Source: a virus
Strand: one strand, 5' to 3'
IMG/VR virus record: IMGVR_UViG_3300028024_000003
Length of the DNA stretch: 64,000 nt
Part shown: piece by piece, positions 6,590 through 62,255 of the stretch
Layout of the letters: each line of letters begins with the position of its first letter
Numbering within the stretch: the first letter of the stretch is position 1
Notes under the pieces: model-generated
The model's database searches: none
Told to the model about the DNA's origin: nothing
Seen by the model: the letters and a program-made list of their open reading frames with translations, nothing else
Position numbers and translations under genes: made by a program

Positions 6590-6632
6590 TACACTGTTTC
6601 AACAGTATATCAAACTTCGTCGTAATTTGCAA
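6590..6632 (-). promoter_or_regulatory. Sigma70 promoter of nrtR with overlapping palindrome
   Basis: TTGCAA-17 nt-TATACT; inverted repeat ACTGTT-TC-AACAGT at 6593-6606 overlaps the -10. Confidence 0.7.
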
Positions 6633-8531: not shown

Positions 8532-9410
8532 TTAAGCAGCGGTGTCGGTGGCCTCGCTAAGCTCGAAAACACCCAGTTCAGCGGCCAGTTCTGCGTTGCG
8601 CACGTTCGCCGAGAACACGCCAGCGTAGGCGGCCTTGAGCGGCTCCAGGCCTTTCGTGAACAGGCCGTGCGTGACATAGAGGTACAGCGGCTGGTCCGTC
8701 TTTTCGCGCAGCACGCGGGCCAGTTCGATGAAGGTGCCGCCGCCGTCGCAGATGTCGTCGACCACGAGCAGCGGCTTCGCTGGCACATCGCCCTGCACTT
8801 GGGCGCCCGAGAGCTTGCCCGTCACCGGGTCGCGCTTCTTGTCGGCAAACACCACTTCCGTGCCGAACATCTTGGCGAGCGCCGAGACGCGCTTGCGGGC
8901 GCCTGCGTCGGGCGCGACGAACGCGCATTCGCGCAGCAGGCTTGCCCCGCCCTTCATGCCGAACGCAGCAAACATCAGGTCGCGCGTCGGACGGATGCGC
9001 ACATTCTTGATGAGCGCGGGCGTAACGTCGCTGTGCGGGTCCCAGATTTCGACCTGGTCGAAGGCCAGGGCATTGATGAGGTTGCAGAAGACCGCAATCG
9101 AGAGCGGCTCGCCGTCCACGGCAACACGGTCCTGGCGGGCGTACGGCACGTAGGGCATCACGAGCTTCAGGATGCTGCCTGCGGGAATCACCCGGCGCAG
9201 TGCGTCCGTGACGAGCATCAGGTCCATGATGTCAGCAGGTGTGTAGACGCGCGCTTCAATGCTCCAGAAAGACACCGGGCCTGCGAGCAGTATGTCGTCG
9301 ACCGGCAGACGTGCGTGGCGCTCGCCACCCGGGAACGACATGAACTGGATGTCGGGGAAGCTGGTCATGTCGCCTTCGGCGGTGAACGAGTGCAGTGCAA
9401 TGTGGTTCAT
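8532..9410 (-). CDS. prs: Ribose-phosphate pyrophosphokinase family (Prs, or phage Adps-like)
   Basis: FPGGE, MPYVPYARQDR, DPHS, VAPDAGA, VVDDICDGGGTF, LYVTHG motifs; likely ATG at 9410. Confidence 0.9.
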   Translation of the reverse strand: MNHIALHSFTAEGDMTSFPDIQFMSFPGGERHARLPVDDILLAGPVSFWSIEARVYTPADIMDLMLVTDALRRVIPAGSILKLVMPYVPYARQDRVAVDGEPLSIAVFCNLINALAFDQVEIWDPHSDVTPALIKNVRIRPTRDLMFAAFGMKGGASLLRECAFVAPDAGARKRVSALAKMFGTEVVFADKKRDPVTGKLSGAQVQGDVPAKPLLVVDDICDGGGTFIELARVLREKTDQPLYLYVTHGLFTKGLEPLKAAYAGVFSANVRNAELAAELGVFELSEATDTAA

Positions 9411-9585
9411 GGTGATGGTTTTTGTTGGTTGATTGTTAATCGTTAATCGCATTTTACATCTAAGTATAGTCGCAGGTCAAGGGGATGATGCGAACACTTT
9501 CGCCGGGTGCCCTGGGCTCGCGCCTGGCGAAACCTATACTGCGTGAGTACCCTGTAAAATTCGTGGACAAAACTGGAGAATTTCA

Positions 9586-17063: not shown

Positions 17064-18173
17064 TCAGGCCGTCTCTTCTTCCTCTACCAGGCGAACATTT
17101 TTTGCCACTGGACCGCGGTCGCCCGCTACCTGCACGAAACTTACTGGCGTGCCCGGCTGGATATGGTCGAAGCCTCGCTTCGCGACTTCGGAATAGTGAA
17201 AGAACGGCGTCAAATCCGAGACATCTGACTGGATGAAACCATAGCCATCGAGAACGCGAATGACGCGACCGGTTATCCGCTGTTCGGAGGGAGGCTCCTC
17301 CGCGCCGCCGGCGCCGTTGGCGAACCCTTTCTTGGCTAATCTTTCGAGCGCATCGCGCGAGGCCGGGGGGCCCGCATCGACCACGGTAGTCGTTTTCGAG
17401 CGTCGCGCGCGCGGAGGCCCCGTCTCGACGCTCACGGGCGCGGGGGATGGCGCTCGCTCTACGGCGGGCGCCAAGGCAGGAGCCGATGTCGGCGCCGGCG
17501 CAGCTTCTTCTGGTTCGTTGCGGCGAGGCTTCAGGAACAGTGCATCAATCAAGTCCCGCTCTGCCTCTGGCAAATCAGGATAGCGACTGATTTGCTCATC
17601 CAGCTGCACGGGGTAGGTCGCCTCGGCAAGCAGCGAGCGCGAAACCGTGGTCTCACGCTCGCGTCCGGAATTGTCGATGAACGCATAACTGGCCCCGATA
17701 ACCATTACGCGGACCCCGCGAGTATTGAGCTTTCTCACCAGCGGAACGAAGTCGCTGTCGCCCGTCACGAGCACGACAACATCGAGTCCCTTGAGTGTCA
17801 CAGCCTCATAGCACTCGAGTGCGAGCGCCACATCAATGCCCTTCTCGCCACGCGGGCCCATGGGCAGGTAGTGCGCCGTCACATCCTCTTTCTGGAGGAT
17901 TTCATCCCACTGTCGTTCCCGGAAAAGCACGTCGTCGTCACGTTCGCGCGCGTCAAATGCGCTGATGCGGCCTGCAAAGAGATGGGATTCGACGATACGG
18001 CAATGCCGCGGGGATACCCCCTCCTCGAGCGCGATATGGTGCGTGACGTAGTTGCGAATGCCGTTGATGCCGATGCGCGCGCGGCGGTCATGGTGATGCA
18101 GGTAGTAAGACGAAACGCCCGAGAAATAGCTACCGTCAAAGAAGATTCCGACCTTTGTAAGATTTACTGACAT
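17064..18173 (-). CDS. NYN (PIN-like) nuclease fused to a cold-shock domain
   Basis: IFFDGSY, EKGIDV, LVTGDSDF NYN motifs; C-terminal GYGFI and FFHYS RNP motifs after a Pro/Ala linker. Confidence 0.88.
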   Translation of the reverse strand: MSVNLTKVGIFFDGSYFSGVSSYYLHHHDRRARIGINGIRNYVTHHIALEEGVSPRHCRIVESHLFAGRISAFDARERDDDVLFRERQWDEILQKEDVTAHYLPMGPRGEKGIDVALALECYEAVTLKGLDVVVLVTGDSDFVPLVRKLNTRGVRVMVIGASYAFIDNSGRERETTVSRSLLAEATYPVQLDEQISRYPDLPEAERDLIDALFLKPRRNEPEEAAPAPTSAPALAPAVERAPSPAPVSVETGPPRARRSKTTTVVDAGPPASRDALERLAKKGFANGAGGAEEPPSEQRITGRVIRVLDGYGFIQSDVSDLTPFFHYSEVAKRGFDHIQPGTPVSFVQVAGDRGPVAKNVRLVEEEETA

Positions 18174-18717: not shown

Positions 18718-20928
18718 TTACGCTGCAAAGAGCATGAGTTGCATGCCCTTGCGACGGCTTGCACTGCGATGCTGCTTCACCTGCTCTGCGACGTCAGGAT
18801 TGTCCTTAAGGAACCGCGTCAGCTCGCCCAGTCGCACGAAGTGATGGCGAGCCCATCCCTTGAACGTCTGTGCACCATACTGCCTGTTCCCCTTCTGGAG
18901 ACAATGCGCGAGCAGCTTGCGCATCGGCAATCCCCTATGACCCATCGTGCGCCACGAGACGTCAGGCGCCCACTCCGCATACAGCACGCTGAGCGGGATG
19001 CGTCGGTCGCGTACATCACTGCGACGATACTTCCGCTCAGCCGCTGCTACGACTTCCAGAGCCGGCCGCGCGGGACGCTTGCGCTCCTCGAGCGGAACCG
19101 GGGCTTCCAGCGACATCGCAAAGGCGTGGTCGCGGTCGTAGTTGTAGCCAGACAGCCTGTTCTGCTCACGCCAGCTCGAGCGACGCAGAATGCTGTCCAC
19201 TTCTCCGACCTGCGACTTCGCCAACGTGATGGCGCCGTACTGCACATAGAACTTGTAGCCCTCGCCCACCAGACTTACGCCGACCGTGTTCAACCGGCGC
19301 GCCGCCTCGTAATGCCGCTTCACCAACCGCTCGAGCTCGAAGTCCAAGAGGTATCCGACCGACTCCTCGTGCACATCGAACATGCGCGCGGTGTCCATCT
19401 CCATCACCTGGCGAGACTCGCCCTTCACCTGGATTTCACGCAAGGCCGTACACGGACCTTCCGTTGCTTCCAGAATCGGGTTGCGTAGACCCGTAAAGGC
19501 GTCTGGCGCGTCCTCATCCCAGTTGTGAACCGGGATGTAGCGAGGCTTCGGCACCGGACCCGCTGGTGCTTTCTCAACGCTCGGGACATCGAACCGCATG
19601 CCCTTCACGTAGACGTCGTAGTAAATGGCCCAGGCTGAAAACGGCAGCGTGTATGCCTGGAGGCTCCATACTGCGTCGATGGCAACCAGGGCGCGAGGGC
19701 TCACGATTTGGAATCGCGGTTCCTTGAGTCCCAACGCCTCCGCAGCGAGCTTCTCGTCCCGGTCAATCGTCAACGCATAGCGCAGCAGGTCTTGTACGTA
19801 TTCCGGAGAATACGCATCAGGCCCGTACACAATGTGTTCGTCGATGATGGTCCGGCCAATCCACGTCCGTTTGCTCAGGTCGTATACCGTGTTATTGACG
19901 TACTCCCTGAAGCGCGTGAGCGGTTCCATGTAGGCATACTGCTCTTGCACGAGAAACGCGTCCATGCTCTTGTCGGAGCCGACCATCGTGCACACGTAAC
20001 AACCGTGACGCGCACCACAGCCCTTCGACGGCTTGTCGCCACGACCGACTGTGCATTCGCCTTCGGCATCCTTGTAGATGCGCCAGACGTCAACAAAGTC
20101 GCTGTAGATGGCAACAGGCAGCCGCTCCTCTTCCGGAAGAACATCCCGGTTGACGGCCAGGCCGATGTACTCCATCACTTCATCGGTCGTCCAGTTTGCG
20201 ATGGGCGCCAGGAACACGTCCTGATTCTCATGCGTCTGGACCAACTGAATCGGCGACTCGGCACGCTTGGTCATGTTGCCCGCGCGTTCCGCGCTTTCGT
20301 CGAAACGAACGCCCGTCACCCCGACCGTGAACTTGCCTTCCGCCACACGGTTGAGCCCGAAGAACTGAGTGCGCACCCGGCCGAGCGGTGTCGACTTGAG
20401 GTCCGTGGTGCAGTTGCGGTTCGTCAGCGGCGTGCTGATGAGGGTTTTGCCACCGATGATGGTGACGGCCCACTGGCTGAGAATGTACGGCTCCGTGACC
20501 GCAATGTGTCCCGGAAGGCCATGCTCCTCAATCCATTCCCGCACGCGCTCGAGCTCCCCACGAACTACGCCTAGAACTTCAGGGTTTTCTACCTGGGTGT
20601 CCGAATTAAGCACCAGAAACCGCTTAACCTGCTTGCCCTCGGCCTTCAGTTGCGCCGCCGCCGCCATTGCCAACGACAGGACTGTGCTGCTGTCCTTCCC
20701 GCCAGAATAGCTATAGCAGATTTCATACTGCTGCATCACCCATTTAAGAATTGCCACCGCTTTCAGCACCTTCTCGTGGAGGTTGCTTTCCTGCATGGCC
20801 ACAACTTCGTCGGGGGCGGTGCGCAAGACGACGGGCTGAAACTCCGCCGCCTTTTTCCTGGGCTTAAACAACACCGGGTGAACTTGCGCGAACGTCTCAC
20901 TGCTGAGCAGGTCTGCTTGCATATCCAT
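18718..20928 (-). CDS. DndC-like PAPS-reductase-family protein with C-terminal extension
   Basis: SGGKDS PP-loop, RNCTTDLK, GVRFDES, PIANW, RHGCYVCT motifs. Confidence 0.82.
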   Translation of the reverse strand: MDMQADLLSSETFAQVHPVLFKPRKKAAEFQPVVLRTAPDEVVAMQESNLHEKVLKAVAILKWVMQQYEICYSYSGGKDSSTVLSLAMAAAAQLKAEGKQVKRFLVLNSDTQVENPEVLGVVRGELERVREWIEEHGLPGHIAVTEPYILSQWAVTIIGGKTLISTPLTNRNCTTDLKSTPLGRVRTQFFGLNRVAEGKFTVGVTGVRFDESAERAGNMTKRAESPIQLVQTHENQDVFLAPIANWTTDEVMEYIGLAVNRDVLPEEERLPVAIYSDFVDVWRIYKDAEGECTVGRGDKPSKGCGARHGCYVCTMVGSDKSMDAFLVQEQYAYMEPLTRFREYVNNTVYDLSKRTWIGRTIIDEHIVYGPDAYSPEYVQDLLRYALTIDRDEKLAAEALGLKEPRFQIVSPRALVAIDAVWSLQAYTLPFSAWAIYYDVYVKGMRFDVPSVEKAPAGPVPKPRYIPVHNWDEDAPDAFTGLRNPILEATEGPCTALREIQVKGESRQVMEMDTARMFDVHEESVGYLLDFELERLVKRHYEAARRLNTVGVSLVGEGYKFYVQYGAITLAKSQVGEVDSILRRSSWREQNRLSGYNYDRDHAFAMSLEAPVPLEERKRPARPALEVVAAAERKYRRSDVRDRRIPLSVLYAEWAPDVSWRTMGHRGLPMRKLLAHCLQKGNRQYGAQTFKGWARHHFVRLGELTRFLKDNPDVAEQVKQHRSASRRKGMQLMLFAA

Positions 20929-22627: not shown

Positions 22628-24664
22628 TCAGATGTCGTCCGCAGTCGCGGCCAGCGAGAGCAGCCAGCTTTCGTCATAGACGGGAACACCGGCTTCCTTG
22701 GCTTTGGTCATTTTGGAGCCTGCGCCTTCGCCCGCGACAAGTGCGTAAGTCTTCTTGCTAACCGAGTCGGACGGCTTGCCACCGAGCTTTTCGACCAACG
22801 CCTTCGCTTGGTCACGCGAGAGCGTCGGCAGCGTGCCCGTGACGACAACCGTCTTGCCCGTCAGCGCGCCGCCTTCGGCGCGCTTGGCTTCGTTGGTCGG
22901 CTTGGCCAGGGTGGCGAGAAGGTCCATTTCTGCGCCGAAGTGTTCGTCCTCGAACGCGGCGATGATGGAGCGGGCCGTGATAGGGCCGATGTCTTCGACC
23001 GAAAGCAGCTCCGACTCTTTCGCCGTGCAGAAGTCTTCCCAGCTACCAAAGTGCAGCGCCAAGCGCTTTGCGGTGCCTTCGCCTACGGATTCGATGCCGA
23101 GCGCGAAGATGAAGCGGCGCAGCGGCCGGCCGATGGATGCCGCAATGCCTGCGGCCAGCTTCGCGGCAGATGTCGCGCCCCATCCGTCGAGCTTGGCCAC
23201 CGCGGCCGTATCCAGCGAGTAGAGGTCCGATGCCTTGTTGATGAGGCCGGCGGCGAGCAGGTCCTTGACACTACCTTCGCCCAACCCTTCGATGTCGAGA
23301 CCGCCACGCGAGCCAAAGTGCGTGAGACGGAACAGGCGCTGGTCGGGGCAGCTCGTACCACCCGTGCAGTAGTGCTCGCCCATGCCCGCTTCCGAGCCTT
23401 CGATGAACTTCACGGCCGAGCCGCACGTCGGGCAGTGCTCCGGCATCTTGAATTCGACGGCGCTTGCCGGACGCAGTTCAAGCAGCGGACGCACAAGTTC
23501 GGGAATCACGTCACCCGCGCGGCGGATAACCACCGTGTCGCCGACGCGAACGCCCTTGATGTTATTGACCTGGTGCTCGTTGTGAAGCGTCACATTCGTG
23601 ACCGTCACGCCGCCGACATGCACCGGGTTCAGGCGTCCCACCGGGGTGAGCTTGCCCGTGCGGCCGACCTGCACGTCGATGGCATCGAGGGTCGTCGGAC
23701 GCTCTTCAGCCGGGAATTTGTAAGCGGTGGCCCAGCGTGGCGTGCGGTTGTTCCAGCCCAGCACTTCCTGCTGGCGATACGACTTGAGCTTGTAGACCAC
23801 GCCGTCGATGTCGAACGGCAGGTCCGCGCGAACAGTTGCGACTTCCTGGAACGAATCGAGCACCCCTTGCACGCCCGTCACAACGCTGAACAGCGTGCTG
23901 ACCTTGAAGCCGAGACCAACCAGGCCGATGAGCGTCGCGTCGTGCGTGTCGTAGCCCTGGCCACGCGCATCGACGATGCCGTATGCGTAGAAGCTTAGGC
24001 GGCGCGCCGCCGTGACTTTCGGGTCGAGCGTGCGCAGGCTGCCTGCGGCGGCATTGCGCGGGTTTGCGTATTCGTCCTCGCCGACTGCTCGCTGCTGCTC
24101 GTTCAGACGTTCGAAGTCCGCCTTGGCCATCAGCACTTCACCGCGCACTTCCGCCGTAATAGGTCGCGCGAGACGCAGCGGCACGCTCTTGATGGTGCGC
24201 ACCTGCGCCGTGACATCTTCGCCCTCTTCGCCATCGCCGCGCGTCACGGCCTGAACAAACAGACCGTCCACGTAGCGCAGGCCACACGACAGGCCGTCGT
24301 ACTTGGGTTCGCGGGTGAATTCCAGCGAGTCCGGCGAGACGCCGAGTTCGGCTGCGATGCCGCGCACGAACTCTTCAGCCGCCGCCGCATCCATCGAATT
24401 GTCGATGGAAAGCATCGGAACCTGATGGCGAACAGTCGGCAGCGACTTGAGCGTTTCGCCGCCCACACGCTGCGTCGGGGAATCGGGGGTGACCAGATGG
24501 GGATGGTCCGCTTCGAGCTCCTGGAGCGCGCGGAACAGCCCGTCATACACGGCGTCGCTTTCGAGCGGTGCGTCGTCCACGTGATAGGCGTGGGAAAGTT
24601 CAGCGACACGCTGCTTCAGGCTCGCATAGCGAGTATCCAGCGATTCGTCCACCGTGATGGTCAT
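22628..24664 (-). CDS. ligA: NAD-dependent DNA ligase
   Basis: KYDG adenylation motif, EVRGE, NPRNAAAGSLR, DGVVYK, VGRTGKLTP, Zn-finger CPTC, HhH repeats, BRCT domain. Confidence 0.97.
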   Translation of the reverse strand: MTITVDESLDTRYASLKQRVAELSHAYHVDDAPLESDAVYDGLFRALQELEADHPHLVTPDSPTQRVGGETLKSLPTVRHQVPMLSIDNSMDAAAAEEFVRGIAAELGVSPDSLEFTREPKYDGLSCGLRYVDGLFVQAVTRGDGEEGEDVTAQVRTIKSVPLRLARPITAEVRGEVLMAKADFERLNEQQRAVGEDEYANPRNAAAGSLRTLDPKVTAARRLSFYAYGIVDARGQGYDTHDATLIGLVGLGFKVSTLFSVVTGVQGVLDSFQEVATVRADLPFDIDGVVYKLKSYRQQEVLGWNNRTPRWATAYKFPAEERPTTLDAIDVQVGRTGKLTPVGRLNPVHVGGVTVTNVTLHNEHQVNNIKGVRVGDTVVIRRAGDVIPELVRPLLELRPASAVEFKMPEHCPTCGSAVKFIEGSEAGMGEHYCTGGTSCPDQRLFRLTHFGSRGGLDIEGLGEGSVKDLLAAGLINKASDLYSLDTAAVAKLDGWGATSAAKLAAGIAASIGRPLRRFIFALGIESVGEGTAKRLALHFGSWEDFCTAKESELLSVEDIGPITARSIIAAFEDEHFGAEMDLLATLAKPTNEAKRAEGGALTGKTVVVTGTLPTLSRDQAKALVEKLGGKPSDSVSKKTYALVAGEGAGSKMTKAKEAGVPVYDESWLLSLAATADDI

Positions 24665-39407: not shown

Positions 39408-41639
39408 CTAGAACGTGATTTCGCATGCACCGCCTGCACAACCCTGCGACGCCAGCGTATCGGCATCGACATAGTCACGCTTGGCCAGCGCTTCCGAGAA
39501 GTCGATTTCCTTCATGGTCTTCTGGATGCTCACCCACTTATGCAGGTTGTAGCAGTCCTTCAGGCAGAAGGTCGTCTTCAGCTCGTCACCGTTGAAGAAG
39601 CTTTCGGCGAACTTGGCAAAACGACGCACCCAGTCACGCTTGAGCAGGTCGCCCGCTTCGTCCGTCAGCTTCAGCCCCATCCCCGTCGCCGTATTGCACG
39701 CCATCCACAGGTCGTCATTGAAGGCATGCAGCCCGTCGACAATCAGACCCGAAGCGAACATGCTCGCGTCGCCGTACGTGTGCAGAATGTCTTCCGCGGT
39801 GAGCACTTCCGTGAACGGTGCCTGGGCATACGCCTTGTCACCCATGGCCGACAGCAGTGAAATGCCGGCGAACCACTCACGGTTATCGAAGATGTACTGC
39901 TCCACTTCGTCCCAATCGTCCACCGAGATGGTGTTGGAGATGTTGTGGCGCAACTTCGGATGCACACACAGCTCGACGTTCGTGCCGTTTTCAACCCAGA
40001 ACTGCTGGGCCTTCTTCACGTACTCCAACTGCTTCACGCCCATCAGGTCCGCCTTGCAAATCGAACCTTCCTTCGTGAAGACCGGGAAGCTCACGACGAT
40101 GTCGGTGCCGTTGCTGCTCCAGACGCTCTTCTCAACCATTTTCGGGTTGACTGCCTGAATCAGCTTGGCCACTTCATCTTCGACGTTCATCTGCACGTTT
40201 CGGAAGTACAGCGCCGAGTGCGCGCCGTGGATACCCGACTCGGTCTGCAGCAGAACCGACGCGTTGCCCGAAGGCTTGGCGCAGGTCGTACGTGCCGCCG
40301 CACGGATACCAATCAGCTTGGCAACTTCACGGTTAACCCGCTTGACGATTTCAGCCCCTTGTTTCAGGATTTCCTCGTCGAACAGGATATGCGGATTGTT
40401 CATCCAGCCCGTGATGGATACACCGATGAGTGCCTCGCGTTCCGTGATGCGGCGCGTAGCGTCGCTCAGGTACTTGAAGTTGGTGTAACCAGCCTGCAGC
40501 GTGCCGAGAATCGCGCTCGCCTCGCACATCGCGAAGAAGATTTCCTTCGTGGTGCACTTGGCGCCGTTACCTTCGGTCAGATTGCAGAACTGGAAACCCG
40601 ACTCGCCGGTTTCGACGCAAATCGGACGCATGCCGATTTCCACGCACGGGTTGTACGCGAAATCGAAGTCGTCCACGAAGATAAAGCCGGGTTCGCCGAA
40701 ATCACGCACACTGCGCATGATGGCGGCCCATTCCTCGCGGGTGAGCTCGTCCTTCTTGAGCACGACAGAGTTGTTGCTGCGGCCGCGTTGCGGGTTGTGG
40801 ACGAACCAGTCACCCGTCTTGGCCTTGAGCATCTCCTCGTCGAACTTGTCGAACAGACAGATGGTGGCCGAACGGCGCACACCACCCGACAGCACGGCAT
40901 CCGACATGTGCATCACGAAGTCGTAGACCACGATGGCACGCATGTCGTCGCGACCTTCCGCAAGCGTACGCTCGAGCAGCGCTTCACACTTCAGCAGCGC
41001 GTTACGCAGACCTTCTGCGCCCGGCGCCTTGAAGCCACCCGAAATAAGTGCGCCCTTCGGACGAATCTTCGAGAAATCGAAGAGCACCGGCGAGCCCTTG
41101 AATGCGGGGAACGTACCTCCATCCACGAAATATGAGGACAGCAGCACGCCGAACGCGTCAGCCCAGCCTTCGATACTGTCGGGCACCTGGAACACCTTCG
41201 CGCTGTCGGCCGAACGCGCCTGAATGCGCGGCAGCTTCGAGACGTGGCGTTCCTGAACGGAGAAGCCGACACCGCAGCCACACAGCAGGAGGTACATGGC
41301 TTCCTGGAAGAAAGCCGCGCGGTCCGCATGCGAAACCGAGCAGTTGTACATCTTTGCTTCGTGGCGCAGCAGCTGCTCACCGCCGAACTGCAGCGCGCGT
41401 TGCGCGCCCAGCACGAGTTGCGAGCTGTAAGCCGCCTGAGCCTTGTCCATAAAGGCCTTGAGCTCGGGCGACATGCGGTCGGCATACTTGCCGCGGTGCA
41501 TCGCCATCACACGTTCCACGGATTCATCCCAGGTTTCGTAGGCACCTTTGCCTTCGACCCAGCGGGAGTAGCCCATGAAGAACTTGGATTGGGACAGCAT
41601 TTGCTTGCCCAGCGACGTATTTTGGGTAGTGTTGGTCAT
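39408..41639 (-). CDS. nrdJ: Ribonucleotide reductase, probably class II (B12-dependent, monomeric NrdJ type)
   Basis: YNC, GCGVGFS, GGVRRSA, GEPG, NPCVEI, CNLTE, TTCAKPSG; no nrdB next to it. Confidence 0.82.
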   Translation of the reverse strand: MTNTTQNTSLGKQMLSQSKFFMGYSRWVEGKGAYETWDESVERVMAMHRGKYADRMSPELKAFMDKAQAAYSSQLVLGAQRALQFGGEQLLRHEAKMYNCSVSHADRAAFFQEAMYLLLCGCGVGFSVQERHVSKLPRIQARSADSAKVFQVPDSIEGWADAFGVLLSSYFVDGGTFPAFKGSPVLFDFSKIRPKGALISGGFKAPGAEGLRNALLKCEALLERTLAEGRDDMRAIVVYDFVMHMSDAVLSGGVRRSATICLFDKFDEEMLKAKTGDWFVHNPQRGRSNNSVVLKKDELTREEWAAIMRSVRDFGEPGFIFVDDFDFAYNPCVEIGMRPICVETGESGFQFCNLTEGNGAKCTTKEIFFAMCEASAILGTLQAGYTNFKYLSDATRRITEREALIGVSITGWMNNPHILFDEEILKQGAEIVKRVNREVAKLIGIRAAARTTCAKPSGNASVLLQTESGIHGAHSALYFRNVQMNVEDEVAKLIQAVNPKMVEKSVWSSNGTDIVVSFPVFTKEGSICKADLMGVKQLEYVKKAQQFWVENGTNVELCVHPKLRHNISNTISVDDWDEVEQYIFDNREWFAGISLLSAMGDKAYAQAPFTEVLTAEDILHTYGDASMFASGLIVDGLHAFNDDLWMACNTATGMGLKLTDEAGDLLKRDWVRRFAKFAESFFNGDELKTTFCLKDCYNLHKWVSIQKTMKEIDFSEALAKRDYVDADTLASQGCAGGACEITF

Positions 41640-41836
41640 GATGTATGTTTCCTCTATAAATTAACAGCGAAATTGCTGCAAATCAGTATAGAGGCGGATG
41701 TTGACAGACTGCGCTTTAAAAGGTATGTGTTACTCAAAACACCTACCGGATGCGGCGCGTTATTGAGGCAAACTTGCGTTTATGCGTGTTTTATAGTATA
41801 GTCCAAAACATCCATCGAACGCTACAAGGACTTCGC

Positions 41837-42934
41837 ATGACCCGCGTCTACCGCCGTGACGGCAACGACTTCTTCCCCACCAGCACCGAAGCACTCGCCA
41901 TCGAGGAAACCCTGCCGCCGGGGACGTACGCGGTCCGGCATGGCGCACTGGTTGGCTACTACCTGGAGCGCATCGACACTTTCGAGCTGCCGGCGAAGCT
42001 CTACGGCGACGTCAACAGCCGTGCGCGACGCATCCTGAACACGTTCCAGAGTCGACCGAACGGCACTGGCGTGCTGCTCTCGGGCCACAAGGGCGCGGGC
42101 AAGACGATGCTGACGAAGCAGATTGCGACGCTGGCGTTGTCCGAGGGCATCCCGACGCTGGTAATCAATGAGGCGTTCTGTGGCGACGAGTTCAACGCAT
42201 TCATCGGCGGCATGCCGCAGGCAGCGGTCATCCTGTTCGACGAATTCGAAAAGGTGTACGACCAGGACAAGCAGCCGCAGCTGCTGACGCTGCTCGACGG
42301 CCTGTATCCGACGAAGAAGCTGTACCTGCTGACGGTCAATGACCGCCATCGCATCGACAAGCATATGATTAACCGGCCGGGCCGTCTGTTCTACTCGTTG
42401 GACTTCGCGGGACTCACCCGCGCGTTCGTCGAGGAATACTGTGTCGACAAGCTGGAAAACCAGGCAAACCTGCGCGGCGTGTTGAACGTCGCAGCGTTTT
42501 TTACCGAATTCACGTTCGACATGCTGCAGGCGCTCGTCGAGGAAATGAACCGGTACAACGAGAACGCAAGCGATGCGATGCAGATGCTGAACATGCGGCC
42601 GCAGAACGACGAAGGCAGCACCTACACCGTCAAGGGCCTGCGCAACGGGACTCCTATCCTGTGCGAATACCAGAATCACGACTCGGTGCATCGCAGCCCG
42701 CTGACGCTGAACGGGCTGGAAGTTACGTTCGTCGCGTTCGACGAGGATGACCGTCCGGAAGGCGGTCTGGAGGAAACGGTCACGTACACGCTGGACATCA
42801 ACCTGCTGCGGGAAGTGAACATCGACGAAGGCCGATTTGTCTTCGGCACGAATGACCCGGAGGTTGTGGTGGTGTTCACTCGCCCGCGCCTGCGTAGCTC
42901 CACCGTCAATTACGACCTGCCTGCAGCAGCGTAA
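41837..42934 (+). CDS. AAA+ ATPase
   Basis: GHKGAGKT Walker A, ILFDEFEK Walker B, LLTLLDG, NRPGR arginine finger; TTGCGT-17 nt-TATAGT promoter. Confidence 0.88.
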   Translation: MTRVYRRDGNDFFPTSTEALAIEETLPPGTYAVRHGALVGYYLERIDTFELPAKLYGDVNSRARRILNTFQSRPNGTGVLLSGHKGAGKTMLTKQIATLALSEGIPTLVINEAFCGDEFNAFIGGMPQAAVILFDEFEKVYDQDKQPQLLTLLDGLYPTKKLYLLTVNDRHRIDKHMINRPGRLFYSLDFAGLTRAFVEEYCVDKLENQANLRGVLNVAAFFTEFTFDMLQALVEEMNRYNENASDAMQMLNMRPQNDEGSTYTVKGLRNGTPILCEYQNHDSVHRSPLTLNGLEVTFVAFDEDDRPEGGLEETVTYTLDINLLREVNIDEGRFVFGTNDPEVVVVFTRPRLRSSTVNYDLPAAA

Positions 42935-42942
42935 ACGCGACG

Positions 42943-43476
42943 ATGAAACGAAGCGCCGAATTCTCCCCTTGCCGCCTATACCGCTACACGCTGTGGCGCT
43001 GGTGGGGTCCGGCGCCTGGTGACGTCGACCGCGGCTACGTCGTGTTTGTCGGGCTCAACCCGAGCACGGCAGACGAAGTCAACGACGACCCGACCATTCG
43101 GCGGTGCATCGCTTTCGCGCGGGCTTGGGGCTTCAGCGGCCTTTGCATGGTCAATCTCTTCGCGTTTCGCTCGAAAGAACCAGCGGACATGCTCGCCGCC
43201 GCGGACCCGGTTGGCCCGGAAAACGATGTGTGGCTCAAGCGACTCGCGAGCAAAGCAGGCCTCGTCGTGGCTGCCTGGGGCGTACATGGCACGCACATGG
43301 CGCGCGATACGCAGGTAAAGCAGCTCATCCCGGAGATGCACTACCTGCGTCTCACGAAAGACGGGCATCCAGGGCATCCGCTGTACCTGCCGAAGACGCT
43401 GTTGCCGCAGCCGTTCGCGCCATTGAAGCACTCACAACATGAACAGACTGAAGCACTTTTTCTCGCCCGCGCGTGA
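42943..43476 (+). CDS. DUF1643-family protein
   Basis: YRYTLWR, GLNPSTAD...DDPTIRRC, VNLFA, AAWG, PGHPLY. Confidence 0.85.
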   Translation: MKRSAEFSPCRLYRYTLWRWWGPAPGDVDRGYVVFVGLNPSTADEVNDDPTIRRCIAFARAWGFSGLCMVNLFAFRSKEPADMLAAADPVGPENDVWLKRLASKAGLVVAAWGVHGTHMARDTQVKQLIPEMHYLRLTKDGHPGHPLYLPKTLLPQPFAPLKHSQHEQTEALFLARA

Positions 43477-43732
43477 TGCGCGGAATGCATATCTCGAAGG
43501 GCTACAACGAGGCGCGAAGCGTCCGCCCGCCTTCGACCTCGTCGTGATGACCAGCACGCTTGTCTGCGCCTGGCTATGTATCGCGGGCATTGTGTACTGG
43601 ATGCGCGCGACGCTGGTGGAAGACAAGGCGTTCATCGCTTTCGTCGCGATTGTGCTCATTTTTTGCATCCGGAAGGCAATCTACGTCACGGTGCTGATGG
43701 CGCATGTGGTGCGCACACCACCGTCTGCCTGA
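43439..43732 (+). CDS. Small membrane protein
   Basis: Two TM helices; operonic. Confidence 0.55.
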   Translation: MNRLKHFFSPARDARNAYLEGLQRGAKRPPAFDLVVMTSTLVCAWLCIAGIVYWMRATLVEDKAFIAFVAIVLIFCIRKAIYVTVLMAHVVRTPPSA

Positions 43733-43748
43733 GACACACGGGATACTC

Positions 43749-44264
43749 ATGAAGAAACTATTCAAGACACTGGCGCTCACTGGCGCGCTCGCCGTGGCGC
43801 TCGCGGGCTGTGGGCAGACGCAGGAACAGATGGCGCGCAGCGTCAGCGCGGCAATGGAAACAGCATTCCCGAAGGACTTCAGCAAGCTCGTATTCGACGA
43901 GCAGCCGCCCTTCGACAACGCGCCAGCTCCGACCCTCGTGTTCAAGGGCGCGGACTCGACCATTATCTCCGTGAGCAAACCCGCCCATCGAGAGCACTGG
44001 CGCGAGTGGATGAGCATGTCGGGCCTGGCGGTCACCAAAAACGGCCGTTGGTTCGAGTTCGTCTACGAATCCGATTTGACGCATGACGAAGGCTTACTGT
44101 CGTCAAAGGCCTGTGTCGAGGACGGCTGCAGGCGCTTTTCGAGCGTCCATTCTGTCGGACTGGAGACGGCCAAGCGTTGGTACTTCGACAGCGACCAGTT
44201 CACGCCTGAGCGCTACCACGCGCTCTTCAATGAAGTCGCGCCGGCCAAGCGCGAGTCTGCCTAA
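43749..44264 (+). CDS. Lipoprotein
   Basis: MKKL signal peptide with LAGC lipobox. Confidence 0.8.
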   Translation: MKKLFKTLALTGALAVALAGCGQTQEQMARSVSAAMETAFPKDFSKLVFDEQPPFDNAPAPTLVFKGADSTIISVSKPAHREHWREWMSMSGLAVTKNGRWFEFVYESDLTHDEGLLSSKACVEDGCRRFSSVHSVGLETAKRWYFDSDQFTPERYHALFNEVAPAKRESA

Positions 44265-44272
44265 GGATTCTA

Positions 44273-44749
44273 GTGCTGAACATTGACCTGGCAGGCGCAC
44301 CGCCTACTCGAACCGACCTGGCCGCGGCGCAAGCAGACCTTGCAGCTCGCAGACGCCTCTACGCGCTACTCCTGATTCCCTGTTTCATCGCTCTCGTGCC
44401 GGCGGCATGGCTCACGCGGGATTCGGCTTTCGGGGGCGGCCTCGTAGGGCTTGTCTTCTCGGTCGTGACAGGAGTGCTCTGCATCCTGCTGATGAACTCG
44501 GCGCTCGCGCGAGGTCTGCTGGCTCCGGTGACGCCCGCGCTATGTCCCGACCTCGAGACCGCAATGCGGGACCCCGTTGTCGCTCGTTATGTTGAGGCGA
44601 TTCAACGCCAAGGCCGCGCGGTCACGCATCGGGAAGCGAGCGAAATTAGGGCGCACGCGAGCGAGACCATCAAGCACGCCGAATCCCGGCGCGCCGCCGC
44701 AGCCTGGCAGCGTGTGCACGGCAAGCCATTCGAGAATGCCGGCCAATAA
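44273..44749 (+). CDS. Two-TM membrane protein (paralog of 60560-61063)
   Basis: TM pair followed by C..L....P.V..Y...R..T..E pattern. Confidence 0.65.
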   Translation: MLNIDLAGAPPTRTDLAAAQADLAARRRLYALLLIPCFIALVPAAWLTRDSAFGGGLVGLVFSVVTGVLCILLMNSALARGLLAPVTPALCPDLETAMRDPVVARYVEAIQRQGRAVTHREASEIRAHASETIKHAESRRAAAAWQRVHGKPFENAGQ

Positions 44750-44765
44750 CAAGGAGCTTCAACCT

Positions 44766-45062
44766 ATGACAACACATGCACCTGCGAACGTGGTCGCTGT
44801 GGCCAAGCCGGGGTATCACCTGGTCACCATTCCGCGCGGCGAACTCGGCGAAATCTCCAAGATTCAGGAGGAGCTGGACGAACTGCGCGATGCCATGGCG
44901 CAGGGTTCCCGCGTGATGGCTGCGGTCGAGCTCTCCGACATGATGGGCGCCATCCACGCTTTCATGGCGCGGCACCTCCCGGGCCTGACGATTCAGGACC
45001 TGCTCACGTTTTCTGACATCACCAAGCGAGCATTCGTCAATGGCCAGCGTACTTCGCGGTGA
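44766..45062 (+). CDS. MazG-like all-alpha NTP pyrophosphatase-like protein
   Basis: KIQEELDELRDA...VELSD acidic helix pattern (EExxE...ExxD). Confidence 0.55.
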   Translation: MTTHAPANVVAVAKPGYHLVTIPRGELGEISKIQEELDELRDAMAQGSRVMAAVELSDMMGAIHAFMARHLPGLTIQDLLTFSDITKRAFVNGQRTSR

Positions 45063-45696
45063 GCCGAGGGCGGCCGCGGTGACCGGCCCGTTTCCCCAAA
45101 ACAGCCTGCTGCTTCTGCACCTCGCGCTTCAGTGGTGGCAGACGCAAGGGCTCCAGTACGTCGACCTGCCGTGGATGGTGCCCTCGCGCTATGTCGATGC
45201 GCACCGGCCATCGTTCTGCCGCGACGTGCCTACGCTGCATGGTTCGTTTGTTGGCTCCGGCGAACAGAGCTTCCTGATGCTGCGCGAACAGGGGCTTCTC
45301 GCTTGCGGCGCGCCGGGTTATATCGGCTGGACGCCCTGCCTGCGTGATGAGGCCGTGCTCGATGAGACGCACCAGCACGGCTTCATGAAGGCTGAATGGT
45401 ACGTGCCTCTCTCGCGCGCGGATGTCTCCAGCTGGCGCGAACGCCTCGACGAAATGCTCGCTGCGCAGGAAATGATGTTCCGGACTGTTGCGCTTTATGC
45501 AGAAGGTCCTATTGGGCTTCGTATCGACCGCGAAGAGGCCGGTGCGGCACAGCACGACCTGGTGGTCGGCGGCCTGGAAATCGGCTCCTACGGCCTGCGT
45601 CACTTCGAAGGGCAATCGTATCTCTACGGTACTGCGTTGGCGCTGCCTAGATTCGCGCAGGCGCTCGAGCGCGTGCCACCTGCAAAACGAGATTGA
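45040..45696 (+). CDS. Stand-alone class II aminoacyl-tRNA-synthetase-like catalytic core; start may be GTG 45079
   Basis: Motif 2-like TPCLRDE, GFMKAE, LEIGSYG, motif 3-like GTALALPRF; no anticodon-binding domain. Confidence 0.65.
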   Translation: MASVLRGEPRAAAVTGPFPQNSLLLLHLALQWWQTQGLQYVDLPWMVPSRYVDAHRPSFCRDVPTLHGSFVGSGEQSFLMLREQGLLACGAPGYIGWTPCLRDEAVLDETHQHGFMKAEWYVPLSRADVSSWRERLDEMLAAQEMMFRTVALYAEGPIGLRIDREEAGAAQHDLVVGGLEIGSYGLRHFEGQSYLYGTALALPRFAQALERVPPAKRD

Positions 45697-46298
45697 AATT
45701 GAACGAGAAAGTGTACAAATACGACGTTATCGTCTACATCGGCCGCTTCGAGCCGTACCACACCGGGCATGACGCGCTGGTCCGGCTGGGCCTTTTGCTG
45801 GGCAAGATTGTCGTCATCGTGCTGGGGTCGGCGGACGAGCCGCGCACCCGAAAGAACCCCCTCGCCGCTCTCGAGCGTGAGATGCTGATGTCGGGCTGCT
45901 TCACCGGCGCGGACCGCGCGCGCCTGCGGTTCGCTGCCGTCGCGGACACGGGAGACAACGAAAGCTGGGTTGCCGACGTTCAAGCCGCTGTCGCTCAGAA
46001 AGCGCCCGGCGCCGCGCGCATCGCACTTCTGGGTCACTTCAAGGACGCATCGAGCTATTACCTCAACCACTTCCCAACCTGGCACCTCGAGAGCGTCTCG
46101 CGCGCAAATGAGCTCGATGCCACGACCGTTCGCAAGGTGATGTTCGACCAGACCCGCACGCTCGAGGCGCGCATCGAGCAGTTGCGCGGCATGGTGCCGG
46201 CTGGCGCCCTTGCCTTCCTCGAGCAGTGGATGTCGACGGATGACTTCCGCGCACTTGCCGAGAAGGAAGTCGCAGTGCCGACGAGTGCGCAAGTATGA
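45693..46298 (+). CDS. NMN adenylyltransferase (NadM-type, no NUDIX domain)
   Basis: IGRFEPYHTGH, LGSAD, KNPL..ERE, DSSSYYL-like and ATTVR segments. Confidence 0.85.
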   Translation: MKLNEKVYKYDVIVYIGRFEPYHTGHDALVRLGLLLGKIVVIVLGSADEPRTRKNPLAALEREMLMSGCFTGADRARLRFAAVADTGDNESWVADVQAAVAQKAPGAARIALLGHFKDASSYYLNHFPTWHLESVSRANELDATTVRKVMFDQTRTLEARIEQLRGMVPAGALAFLEQWMSTDDFRALAEKEVAVPTSAQV

Positions 46299-46429
46299 GC
46301 TGGCTCAAGCGTCTTTTCTGTGAACACCTCTGGCAGCGTTACGGTAGCGGCTATGACAGCCTGGTCCGGTGCCCCCGCTGCGACACCGTCAAGGATGAAG
46401 AGCCGGGCGATGTCTCATCGCTGGATTGA
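46295..46429 (+). CDS. 44-aa Zn-finger-like protein missed by the ORF track
   Basis: MSWLKRLFCEHLW...CPRC; ATGA overlap. Confidence 0.55.
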   Translation: MSWLKRLFCEHLWQRYGSGYDSLVRCPRCDTVKDEEPGDVSSLD

Positions 46430-46442
46430 AAGAGGCTCCGCT

Positions 46443-46449
46443 CTATACC
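46443..46449 (+). promoter_or_regulatory. CTATACC element
   Basis: 38 nt upstream of ATG 46488. Confidence 0.5.
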
Positions 46450-46487
46450 GATTGCAGTAGTTCAATCCACATAGAGAGGAAAAAATC

Positions 46488-46841
46488 ATGTCCAGCACGA
46501 CGAACGCAGTGAACGCAGCACGTAACGAATCTCTCGATAAAGAAGTCGCTTTTCGCGCAAAGCTCGGCCAGACGCAGGTGACGTTCGCGCGACTCAAGGA
46601 GATGATTCGTGAACTCGGCTATGCCTTCGACCTGAGCATGTCGTGCAAGAGCATTGCGCGCTACATGACGGGCGACCGCGCGGGCGAGTCCTACCCGGCC
46701 AATTCGCTCTATCCGCGCCAAATCGACGACGGCAGGTCGTACGCCCACATCGAAGCCCGCCGCGACGCCAACTTCGACCGGCTGAAGGAAATCCGCAACA
46801 CGTATTTCGCGGTGCACGGCGGATATATCTACGAGTGGTGA
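46488..46841 (+). CDS. Hypothetical protein
   Basis: GAGAGG RBS; terminator at 46863-46895. Confidence 0.75.
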   Translation: MSSTTNAVNAARNESLDKEVAFRAKLGQTQVTFARLKEMIRELGYAFDLSMSCKSIARYMTGDRAGESYPANSLYPRQIDDGRSYAHIEARRDANFDRLKEIRNTYFAVHGGYIYEW

Positions 46842-46922
46842 TTGCTGTAACTCGCATGTCTCAAAGCCTCCCGCCTTGCGCAGGAGGCTTTCCTTTTGCG
46901 GACTCAAGAGTGTGCCGTCGCT

Positions 46923-46929
46923 CTATACG
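46923..46929 (+). promoter_or_regulatory. CTATACG element
   Basis: After terminator; 35 nt upstream of ATG 46965. Confidence 0.6.
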
Positions 46930-46964
46930 CAAAGGCAGCGTCTGCTGTTTTCTGAGGACATACC

Positions 46965-47249
46965 ATGACTACACGATTGACCCACGAGCAGGTTACCGCA
47001 CTACTCAAAGACGCACCCGTCCATCGCTTTGGCTCGCCGGCCCTGACGGACATCCACCGCAAACGCGATGAACGCAACCGTTACACGCACTATCAGGCCT
47101 ACGTGGTGTTTCACCCCGGAGTCCGCGGCGGTCCGAGTCATCACACGCTGAACGTTACATACGTAGGCCAGCTCGTGCCGGACATGTACGACATCGAGAA
47201 GGACTGGTTGCTGGCCGCCCAGCCTCATCTGAACACGGGTGCGAGCTAA
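46965..47249 (+). CDS. Hypothetical protein
   Basis: GAGGA RBS; terminator at 47283-47308. Confidence 0.7.
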   Translation: MTTRLTHEQVTALLKDAPVHRFGSPALTDIHRKRDERNRYTHYQAYVVFHPGVRGGPSHHTLNVTYVGQLVPDMYDIEKDWLLAAQPHLNTGAS

Positions 47250-47328
47250 CCACGTTACTCAAAAGGAAAACACCCTCTCAATGCAGCCCCTATTCGGGCT
47301 GCTTTTTCATGTGCATTAGAGGGCCGAG

Positions 47329-47335
47329 CTATACG
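47329..47335 (+). promoter_or_regulatory. CTATACG element
   Basis: 20 nt after terminator; 40 nt upstream of ATG 47376. Confidence 0.6.
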
Positions 47336-47375
47336 AAAGAGCAGCAATTCGCTGTTCTATTCGAGGAAACACACG

Positions 47376-48044
47376 ATGTCATATCAGACCAACCTCTTCA
47401 CGCTCATCGACACGGCCGACGACCGGGGCAGGGTTCACTTCACCGCGCGCGAGCCAATGCGCACCAAGGAGCAGGCGCGGGACTTTCTTGGAAGCATGTT
47501 CATGGATTTCCCGCTACTTACCGTTCGGCTTGACTCTGTGAAGAAAGCCATCACTGAAGTCGACTTGGAATTGAGCCCCATCGAGGGCGCCACGGTGCTC
47601 AGCGTGAATCTCGCTAAGGTTCTTTTGCTGCCTTCGGTATCGCCGGCCGCTGAGCTGACGGAGTTCCGCGAAATGCTTCTCGCCATGAAGGCGTTTTTCG
47701 AAGCCCACGAGACCGAGCGCGTCGACGTCCAGATTGTGAACAACCGCGACCGCAACAAGCGCGTGTTCGGAGACATCTCCTGCCGCGTGCCGACCGACGA
47801 GCACAAGATGACGAGCGATGAAGCGGCGACCGCGGCCCTCAACGCCCGAATCGAAGCAAGCCCCGCACTCAGCCACTGGCTGCGGCAGGTCGCACTTTCG
47901 CTAGGAAGAATCGGCCCGTGGTCGTGGACTGTCATTCGCGGCGACGAGCTGTTTGGCTACGGGGAAAGCCCGTATTTCAAGTGGCGGGAGAAGCAGCCCC
48001 GCGTGCCGAGCGAACCGGAAAAGCTCCGCGTGCTCGACGTCTAG
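47376..48044 (+). CDS. Hypothetical protein
   Basis: GAGGA RBS; own terminator. Confidence 0.75.
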   Translation: MSYQTNLFTLIDTADDRGRVHFTAREPMRTKEQARDFLGSMFMDFPLLTVRLDSVKKAITEVDLELSPIEGATVLSVNLAKVLLLPSVSPAAELTEFREMLLAMKAFFEAHETERVDVQIVNNRDRNKRVFGDISCRVPTDEHKMTSDEAATAALNARIEASPALSHWLRQVALSLGRIGPWSWTVIRGDELFGYGESPYFKWREKQPRVPSEPEKLRVLDV

Positions 48045-61091: not shown

Positions 61092-62255
61092 TCAGCGCAC
61101 GTCCGGCAGATACTCACCTGTCGTCGGGTGCTTCATAACGCGCATGCCCGCCGCGTCCCGCTGCAGCACAGGGCTGCGTGAGGCCTGCACAGGTGGCTGG
61201 CCAGGACAAACGCCGAGATGCTCGCGTCCCAGTTCGGTGATGACTCGCCCGCGTGGCGTGCGCTGGAGCAGCCCTTGCTGGATGAGGAACGGCTCGACCG
61301 CATCCTCAATCGTGTCTTCTGCCTCGCTGATAGCTGCGCACAGCGTATTGAGCCCCACCGGGCCGCCGCCATAGAAGTCGACCATCGCCAGAAGCAGACG
61401 ACGGTCAATCGAATCTAGCCCGCGCGAGTCCACTCCGAGCATGGCGAGCGCCGCCTGTGCATCCGCCCCGCTGACCTCGTTCGGGTTCGCGCCGTTGACC
61501 GTCGCATAGTCCCGCACGCGCCGAAGCAGCCGGTTGGCTATACGCGGCGTGCCACGCGAGCGCATGGCAACCTCGAGCGCGGCGCCTGGCGCCATGTCGA
61601 CGCCAAGCAACCCGGCCGAACGGCTCACGATGGCCTCGAGCTCGTCGTCGGTGTAAAACTCCATGCGTCCGGTAATGCCGAAGCGGTCGCGCAGCGGCGC
61701 TGAGAGACTGCCTGCGCGCGTGGTAGCGCCGACCAGCGTGAAGGGCGACAGCGGCACGGTTACCGTGCGGGCTTCCTGCCCTTCTCCGACCATGATGTCG
61801 AGCTTGTAGTCTTCCATCGCCGGATACAGTACCTCTTCAACGACGGGCGGCAGCCGGTGAATCTCGTCGATGAAAAGCACGTCGTTGGGGTTCAGTCCAG
61901 TGAGCAGCGCGGCAATGTCACCCGGCTTCTCAAGCACCGGCCCAGTCGTTACCTTGAGGCCGACGCCGAGCTCCGCGGCGATGATTTGCGCGAGCGTTGT
62001 CTTGCCCAGCCCCGGCGGCCCGAAAAGCAGCACGTGGTCGAGCGCCTCGGCGCGGTGCTTGGCCGCCGCGAGGAAGATGGAAAGCTGGCCTCGCAGCGCC
62101 TTTTGGCCGATGTAGTCGGCAAGGCGCTTCGGGCGCAGCGCGCGGTCCTCCACCGGCTCTCCGGCTTGCGCAACCGGCGACACGATGGGCGCGGGGGCGG
62201 CCGTCGGCTCAGCAGCGGCACCGCGCGCGTTGCGCTTACGAGGCGTGGCAGTCAT
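61092..62255 (-). CDS. ruvB: Holliday junction branch-migration ATPase RuvB
   Basis: LRP...[49 protein letters not shown]. Confidence 0.96.

Follow-up and report, generated by a model that had tools for sequence, protein, structure and literature searches.

A stand-alone SerRS-type catalytic core paired with a HisE/MazG-type protein in large phages and ultra-small cells

The stretch of viral DNA analysed here (64,000 nucleotides, IMG/VR virus record IMGVR_UViG_3300028024_000003, referred to at its full length as the window) carries at 44766-46429 four overlapping genes on the + strand, and these raise the question of which of them belong together and what they might make. A first-pass annotation, made from the letters of the sequence, had described four overlapping or abutting open reading frames (ORFs) encoding a MazG-like protein, a stand-alone class II aminoacyl-tRNA synthetase (aaRS) core, a nicotinamide mononucleotide (NMN) adenylyltransferase and a zinc finger, and all four are indeed present at these coordinates. 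Two of them, the genes for a 98-aa HisE/MazG-type protein and for a 218-aa seryl-tRNA synthetase-like core (mini-SerRS), are a true conserved unit, a widespread putative two-part enzyme. The composite favoured here, at a probability of roughly 0.6, is that this pair combines a seryl-adenylate-forming core with a pyrophosphatase, that the NMN adenylyltransferase serves ordinary NAD salvage, and that the fourth ORF is a lineage-specific peptide.

The 218-aa core and its 98-aa partner

In the 218-aa protein the catalytic core of a SerRS-type (class IIa) synthetase stands alone. It matches nothing in Pfam or NCBIfam, and its match to phrog_4806 (1.8e-27) leads to a family that PHROGs annotates as 'histidyl tRNA synthetase'. 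As a single sequence the core finds no meaningful match in the PDB; a profile of 45 core sequences finds SerRS chains only (best 2e-5), and neither HisRS nor HisZ. The structure search that the first-pass annotation had named as the check for a class II aaRS fold finds that fold in the AlphaFold2 (AF2) model of the protein (predicted local distance difference test, pLDDT, 91.5). Foldseek returns at least 500 matches at E <= 0.001, led by SerRS and PylRS at 5e-9, and the best 50 are nearly all SerRS or PylRS chains. A VIA structure comparison returns 69 chains at Z >= 8, the best 50 all being class II synthetases or known paralogues. The catalytic domains of SerRS (1ser/1ses, 2dq0, 7u2a) share the fold of the core and come first (Z 17.5-19.0, about 200 of the 218 residues aligned, identity up to 21%), followed by HisZ/HisRS, PylRS, Bll0957 (3mey, Z 16.0), AsnA and GenX. 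The methanogen-type SerRS scores Z 14.9, below the bacterial type.

The likeness to SerRS extends to the active site, for which residue equivalences were taken from an alignment to one bacterial SerRS together with the family alignment, and invariance was assessed over 105 relatives. P44 corresponds to the conserved proline of motif 1 (the dimer motif), S73-G-E75 aligns with the TxE motif of SerRS, TPCxRxE (R102, E104) with motif 2, F115-x-K117-x-E119 with FxKxE, and E180-x-x-S183 with EISS/EIxS, while the GTxLAxPR stretch is shared with SerRS and sets T198 six residues ahead of the motif 3 arginine, R204. In the relatives S73, E75, R102, F115, K117, E119, E180, S183, T198 and R204 are invariant or kept in 104 of 105. 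These conserved positions are those which, following the numbering and structures of Thermus thermophilus SerRS, we take to hold the alpha-amino and hydroxyl groups of serine, Mg and ATP. The sole invariant cysteine of the core, C100, is the cysteine of the TPC motif that is also found in bacterial SerRS.

What the core lacks is as characteristic as what it keeps. Its model residues 8-218 align to residues 149-400 of 1ser only. Only about 20 residues precede motif 1, with no N-terminal coiled-coil tRNA arm; compared with SerRS, about 9 residues are missing from the motif 2 loop and about 30 from between EISS and motif 3, and the protein ends without the C-terminal tail. Members of the family are accordingly short (180-220 aa, typically about 200 aa, compared with 420-470 aa for SerRS). 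Because the active-site positions are kept and the arm, the loop, the segment before motif 3 and the tail are gone, the core looks like a working seryl-adenylate-forming site that has been stripped of everything holding tRNA. The earlier description of class II motifs 2 and 3 without an anticodon- or tRNA-binding domain is thus upheld by alignment, Foldseek and VIA alike. Further differences from SerRS are that the core is paired or fused with a MazG/HisE-like protein, and that its occurrence is all but confined to large phages and to genomes of the candidate phyla radiation (CPR) and DPANN groups.

The 98-aa protein is predicted to be an all-alpha, HisE/MazG-type nucleoside triphosphate (NTP) pyrophosphohydrolase-like protein whose metal and triphosphate site is intact. 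It matches phrog_6408 at 1.7e-33 and, below the cutoff, the Pfam family PRA-PH (HisE) at E 0.0017; a profile of the protein finds nothing meaningful among PDB sequences. The AF2 model consists of three helices (pLDDT 89.7), and its best Foldseek matches are HisE/HISN2, iMazG, DCTPP1 and MazG (probability 0.96-0.99, root-mean-square deviation 1.4-1.9 A across about 58 residues), with poor E-values that follow from the small size of the domain. Among 40 relatives Y17, H18, K32, E35, E36, E39, E55, D58 and R95 are invariant, as is an N-terminal G-Y-H, and E35, E36, E39, E55 and D58 form an EExxE...ExxD metal-binding signature. The MazG-like label of the first-pass annotation therefore holds at the level of the family and the signature, with phrog_6408, the acidic residues and the best Foldseek rows in agreement. 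In L006 (4788-5014), L007 and L008 (loci are cited by L numbers and individual proteins by P numbers) the partner is split into two short ORFs by a frameshift or internal deletion that falls between its SKIQ and ELSELRDA segments, and the adjacent core gene is intact.

The combination of a synthetase-like core with a HisE-like protein recalls HisZ, a HisRS paralogue that regulates HisG and thus an aaRS-like protein that works with nucleotide enzymes. By this comparison the core would be a non-catalytic subunit that senses an amino acid or ATP and regulates a HisE/MazG-type pyrophosphatase. HisE provides the best fold and Pfam matches of the partner, HisZ chains are a near-tied structural match to the core (VIA Z 16.8-17.4 vs 17.5-19.0 for SerRS), and the tight pairing and the fusions described below would suit a regulatory complex. 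By sequence, however, the core resembles SerRS and not HisRS: its identity to HisZ is about 8%, its profile search retrieves SerRS alone, and the motif 2 and 3 arginines and the Mg-binding Glu and Ser, catalytic positions that HisZ is not known to keep, are invariant. No HisG family is found among the recurrent neighbour clusters of the pair. A HisZ-like regulatory role is consequently judged scarcely probable.

A second comparison is with the amino acid:[carrier protein] ligases such as Bll0957, which likewise have a class II core but no tRNA-binding domain and use a non-tRNA acceptor that is encoded next door. These enzymes, about 300 aa long, descend from the zinc-dependent SerRS of the methanogen type and load a phosphopantetheinylated carrier, whereas the neighbour of the mini-SerRS is not a carrier protein and neither a carrier gene nor a phosphopantetheinyl transferase gene is linked to it. 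As a candidate carrier the 98-aa protein was rejected, since the serine of its ELSD motif varies among relatives (ELAD, ELCD, ELTD) and the Glu/Asp signature is invariant. Assignment of the core to this ligase class was likewise set aside, given the MazG-signature neighbour, the variable ELSD serine and the higher scores for bacterial-type SerRS than for the methanogen type.

The pair across phages and cellular genomes

The linkage of the two genes was followed over 105 loci (80 taken from IMG/VR and 14 from species genomes in GTDB, with phage records and close relatives supplying the others), which dereplicate at 80% identity to 84 groups. In 101 of the 105 loci, and in 80 of the 84 groups, the flank contains the partner gene in the same orientation as the core, and one of the four exceptions, L037, is cut at a contig end. 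Of the first 88 loci, 59 have the partner immediately upstream of the core and 12 immediately downstream, and in a further 16 it is one gene away. The two proteins are also fused in both orders, core-MazG in L073, L096, L097, P0156, P0195 and P0196, and MazG-core in P0142. No fused form above 435 aa turned up when one was sought, which is weak evidence only, and a 1:1 complex prediction for core and partner, made with alignments, returned a score of 0.00 and counts neither way. The check on conserved linkage that the first-pass annotation had proposed thus has a divided outcome: MazG-type gene and core are linked almost throughout, in both orders and in both types of fusion, a coupling that ranks among the closest that two genes can show, and the other two genes are not part of this linkage.

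The distribution of the two families points in the same direction. In a phage database the core is found in 263 records and the partner in 270, at adjacent coordinates, and the counts per host genus are nearly identical; the hosts of pair-carrying phages include Escherichia, Acinetobacter, Caulobacter and Pectobacterium. The core family comprises 1,613 clusters at 50% identity, mostly from large phages with some from CPR and DPANN genomes. Among 185,579 species genomes it is present in only 14, chiefly those of Saccharibacteria and DPANN-type archaea and contigs of metagenome-assembled genomes (MAGs) that may be phage. Carriage of the pair on CPR and DPANN chromosomes favours a metabolic or maintenance role over a dedicated anti-defence role, and the earlier suggestion that the locus counters signalling-based defence is therefore not favoured. 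Literature on MazG together with seryl or class II synthetases in phages yielded no published function for the pair: the mentions found are genome annotation only (PMC8953757), and a jumbo-phage survey does not describe it (PMC7824862).

The genomic context of the pair is mixed, with nucleotide metabolism as the commonest theme. Clustering of neighbours over 102 loci shows that any other gene family recurs in 12 of them at most. Ribonucleotide reductase (RNR) is present in the flank of 12 of the 84 groups, helicases recur, and 12 loci from 5 groups encode, 1-2 kb upstream of the pair, an additional MazG paralogue of greater length (about 190-230 aa; Table 1). In CPR-type MAGs an AAA_28 P-loop kinase stands directly beside the pair (L100:4268-6495, L099:5091-5711, L093:4749-6451), fused in L093 to a CYTH triphosphatase domain and accompanied in L100 by a divergent Nudix protein that also adjoins the pair, so that the pair locus in these MAGs is a nucleotide-centred operon.

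The NadM-type gene, the 44-aa peptide and the surrounding locus

The third gene of the four encodes a 201-aa protein that, on the sequence matches, is a predicted NadM-type NMN adenylyltransferase without a Nudix domain, a local neighbour outside the conserved pair. NCBIfam models of bifunctional NadM/Nudix enzymes match it at up to 6.9e-39 over their N-terminal half only (model positions 1-199 out of 340-354, with scores well under the equivalog cutoffs), PRK13793 gives a sub-cutoff 116 bits, and PF01467 is matched at 4.6e-5. Among PDB sequences the best matches are the NadM halves of the NadM-Nudix enzymes of Synechocystis (slr0787, 2qjo, 7.6e-23) and Francisella (2qjt, 7.7e-18). The motifs GRFEPYHTGH (HxGH; GRFxPxHxGH in those enzymes) and LDATTVR (SxTxxR-type) are readable. 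Unlike these enzymes, the window protein ends at 201 aa and contains no Nudix (ADP-ribose pyrophosphatase) domain. The NMN adenylyltransferase label of the first-pass annotation is thus borne out, and can be narrowed to the NadM type by NCBIfam, 2qjo and the motifs.

Whether this gene shares a pathway with the pair can be judged from its relatives. The first-pass annotation had proposed one small pathway from all four genes; in an explicit version the core would adenylate a carboxylate such as nicotinic acid mononucleotide and amidate it, or serylate an NAD-related nucleotide, the MazG-type protein would trim a triphosphate and NadM would adenylylate the product. The tight overlaps of 23, 4 and 4 nt are consistent with this, as is L103, a 74%-identical Burkholderia relative in which the order MazG/core/NadM/peptide is the same and which is the only other locus where NadM directly adjoins the pair. 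In L105, L024 and L081, too, a NadM or NadM-Nudix gene is no more than 2 kb from the pair (in L105 NadM lies 2 kb downstream behind inserted genes), NADAR adjoins the pair on its upstream side in L006, and the CPR-type MAGs bring the AAA_28 kinase and Nudix protein next to it, the AAA_28 family being one that includes the ribosylnicotinamide kinase domain of NadR. The relatives at 58-62% identity, L004 and L104, nevertheless keep the order RNR/AAA/.../MazG/core and carry other genes after the core, with NadM absent there, and elsewhere NadM-Nudix genes come within 2 kb of the pair in just two unrelated phages. In total NadM is found in the flank of 4 of the 84 groups, compared with 80 for MazG, and the phages that carry NadM (of Klebsiella, Vibrio, Enterobacter and Stenotrophomonas) are largely a different set from those that carry the pair. 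Moreover, the invariant TxE-type Glu and the positions that bind the serine hydroxyl suit an alpha-amino acid and not a pyridine carboxylate, and the CxxC of the peptide is not conserved. A single pathway of all four genes is therefore very unlikely, and the coupling of NadM to the pair appears to be a recent, lineage-specific arrangement. Of the small-pathway proposal the conserved link between a class II core and a MazG-like protein remains; NadM and the peptide fall outside the unit.

A partner pathway for NadM is found on the same element. Genes for NrtR, a NadV/NAMPT-family phosphoribosyltransferase (PRTase) and a Prs-like protein lie 36 kb upstream (Table 1), and the NadM-type protein most likely supplies the missing NMN-to-NAD step of a NARP2-type salvage route based on NadV, with Prs and NrtR. 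In phages the NARP2 route consists of NadV and NadM (bioRxiv 10.1101/2024.02.11.579819; PMC13464706), and the window likewise has its NAMPT-family gene on the same element as NadM; it differs in the 36 kb that separate NadM from nadV/prs/nrtR. NARP3 (PMC13464706) was considered as a match for the pair and rejected, as it consists of PnuC and a NadR-like protein and is unrelated. NrtR-operator-like 21-mers stand at 6616, 8475, 9443, 11455, 13953 and 15301, among 10 matches where 0.4 are expected. Since these sites are confined to 6.6-15.3 kb, NadM is probably expressed with the RNR-side operon and not under NrtR. The NAD-dependent DNA ligase of the window implies that the element has its own need for NAD.

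The fourth ORF encodes a 44-aa peptide with C9, H11, C26 and C29 in a CxH...CxxC pattern, and its zinc-ribbon matches in Pfam and NCBIfam are all sub-threshold. The only orthologue found (L103, 40 aa) keeps both ends and has lost the CPRC knuckle, so that of the 'Zn finger' proposed earlier the pattern can be seen in the window and its CxxC is gone from the sole relative; zinc binding as a conserved property has no support. The ORF is lineage-specific and translationally coupled, and may be a real small protein.

The four genes close a run of nine + strand ORFs that extends from 41750 to 46429 with gaps of at most 16 nt or overlaps (Table 1), opposite a divergent gene for a class II (B12-type) RNR. 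The order RNR (on the - strand)/AAA/DUF1643/.../MazG/mini-SerRS recurs in the relatives L004, L103, L104 and L105; close relatives are on contigs of 130-700 kb, some of them Burkholderia ubonensis assemblies. The complete stretch is contained in one soil metagenome, probably its source, and no RNA data set is listed as containing it. The first-pass annotation had placed the four genes at the end of a long operon. They do end the nine-gene run, but no convincing terminator directly follows 46429, and with the first good + strand candidate at 47283-47302, an operon end at 46429 is not established. The 58-nt spacer that follows the 44-aa ORF (46430-46487) contains CTATACC and then a strong ribosome-binding site (GAGAGGAAAAAATC-ATG). 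The relatives L004 and L105 have an inserted gene for a GmrSD_N-domain protein downstream of the pair; in L105 it stands between the core/MazG genes and the NadM gene. Other genes of the window include those for an NYN-CSD protein, a large PAPS-reductase-domain protein and RuvB.

Table 1. Location of the genes named in the text; coordinates are those of the window unless a locus is given
Feature	Location	Strand	Remarks
98-aa HisE/MazG-type protein (predicted)	44766..45062	+	AAGGAG 8 nt before ATG
218-aa mini-SerRS core	45040..45696	+	overlaps 98-aa gene by 23 nt
201-aa NadM-type NMN adenylyltransferase (predicted)	45693..46298	+	4-nt overlap; alternative start GTG 45708
44-aa peptide	46295..46429	+	4-nt overlap with NadM-type gene
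AAA ATPase	41750-42934	+	Pfam/PHROG matches
DUF1643	42943-43476	+	Pfam/PHROG matches
Small membrane protein	43439-43732	+	upstream in nine-ORF run
Lipoprotein-like protein	43704-44264	+	upstream in nine-ORF run
158-aa protein	44273-44749	+	upstream in nine-ORF run
NrtR	5903-6577	-	Pfam NrtR_WHD
NadV/NAMPT-family PRTase	6713-8434	-	Pfam NAPRTase
Prs-like protein	8532-9452	-	Pfam Pribosyltran_N/Pribosyl_synth
NYN-CSD protein	17064-18173		
Large PAPS-reductase-domain protein	18718-20928		
NAD-dependent DNA ligase	22628-24664		
RuvB	61092-62255		
GmrSD_N-domain protein in relatives	L004:6454-7233, L105:7933-8700		downstream of pair
Second MazG paralogue	L013-L018, L033, L076-L079, L095:4653-5234, L098		upstream of pair
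RNA_pol_A_CTD-core fusions	L027:3755-4633, L031:3758-4636		Caulobacter phage CcrColossus type; proteins P0141, P0187

Proposed function of the pair and its meaning

The best guess for the pair, going by the residues that are kept and lost, is a seryl-adenylate-forming ligase with a non-standard acceptor that is coupled to NTP pyrophosphohydrolysis. Because motif 1, the motif 2 and 3 arginines, the Mg-binding Glu and Ser and the three serine-holding positions are kept, the core would be likely to bind ATP and L-serine, or a close analogue, and to form seryl-adenylate. Since the coiled-coil arm, the larger part of the motif 2 loop and the stretch preceding motif 3 have been lost, the activated serine, or the adenylyl group, would probably go to an acceptor other than a tRNA-Ser recognised in the normal way. 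In the same pathway the 98-aa partner would hydrolyse a nucleoside triphosphate between its alpha and beta phosphates, and in doing so could either supply an acceptor of the nucleoside monophosphate (NMP) type or process and clear a nucleotide product. As the acceptor, a nucleotide or other small molecule is put forward tentatively, at somewhat under even odds. An RNA, tRNA or DNA end seems rather unlikely, ATP itself with a product of the diadenosine tetraphosphate (Ap4A) type much less likely again, and a sensor role without any transfer equally hard to credit.

A working analogy for this arrangement is the MazZ-PurZ system of Z-genome phages, in which a MazG-type dGTP pyrophosphatase feeds an amino-acid-ligating nucleotide enzyme. 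By this analogy one enzyme of the pair might likewise make an NMP that an ATP-dependent, amino-acid-using ligase then modifies. PurZ, however, is an adenylosuccinate-synthetase homologue and not a class II aaRS core, and neither PurZ, DatZ nor other base-modification genes are linked to the pair.

A number of observations weigh against the composite of pair enzyme, NAD salvage and peptide. The serine specificity proposed for the core depends on motif equivalence with SerRS, and we know of no truncated aaRS paralogue that uses a free nucleotide as its acceptor. The match of the partner to the MazG fold is statistically weak: Foldseek E-values are about 0.5, and in a wide VIA search HisE/MazG structures reach Z 6.3, which is not above the helical background, so that fold statistics alone say little for this protein. 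On the side of NAD salvage, no NrtR-operator-like site is found near the NadM operon (41500-47500 searched), and the 4-nt overlap between NadM and the core, together with the recurrence of the trio in close relatives, may reflect a local functional tie. The remaining points concern RNA. Of 60 loci, 14 have tRNA genes no more than 4 kb from the pair, and in L011, L020, L023, L042, L050 and L061 the pair is found inside tRNA arrays or at their edge. In one phage lineage (Table 1) an N-terminal RNA_pol_A_CTD domain of about 80 aa, a helix-hairpin-helix domain, is fused to the core in the exact place of the SerRS tRNA-binding arm, a lineage-specific hint that the enzyme may act on or near nucleic acid, and in L006 a gene for RlaP is just upstream of the pair.

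These last observations, together with the full retention of the SerRS active site, are what would be expected if the core were still directed at RNA, serylating tRNA-Ser or an RNA 3' end (phage tRNAs, or damaged or repaired CCA ends) by means of trans-acting or fused helpers, with the MazG-type protein as an accessory. The parts lost from the core argue otherwise, as deletion of the arm of Escherichia coli SerRS reportedly leaves activation intact and nearly abolishes tRNA charging. In addition, it is not obvious what the partner would do in tRNA charging, the helper domains are confined to particular lineages, and the window has no tRNA gene in its 64 kb. An RNA-directed core is therefore considered unlikely.

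The absence of any acceptor-binding part from the core also allows for ATP as the acceptor, in which case seryl-adenylate and ATP or another NTP would give Ap4A or Ap4N, and the partner, which belongs to a class of enzymes that cut alpha-beta phosphoanhydride bonds, would hydrolyse this product or shape its pool. SerRS is a documented producer of Ap4A, and a structure of T. thermophilus SerRS with Ap4A has reportedly been obtained. A synthase and a hydrolase of the same compound would nonetheless form a futile cycle unless regulated, and ApaH, Nudix Ap4A hydrolases and cap-related genes are not seen near the pair, save for the one Nudix protein in a CPR MAG. A dinucleoside-polyphosphate pair is accordingly given only a slight chance.

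For the window itself the result is a more modest one, as its pair is one more member of a widespread family. The family matters because a conserved active site and a nucleotide-pyrophosphatase partner recur together in about 1,600 clusters from large phages and ultra-small cellular parasites. The mini-SerRS is to our knowledge the smallest SerRS-type core, and the truncated aaRS paralogues AsnA, HisZ, EpmA and the amino acid:carrier-protein ligases have each brought new chemistry. The pair is carried by common model and therapeutic phages, among them Phapecoctavirus, rV5/phi92-like, Acinetobacter T4-like and phiCbK-like phages, and identification of the acceptor would give a function to a gene pair of these phages. 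In its most specific form, which is quite improbable, the proposal would make the pair a tRNA-independent 'seryl-nucleotide synthase' that loads serine onto a nucleotide or nucleic-acid end without tRNA-type recognition; if true, this would represent a new class of amino-acid-nucleotide conjugate metabolism common to large phages, CPR bacteria and DPANN archaea.

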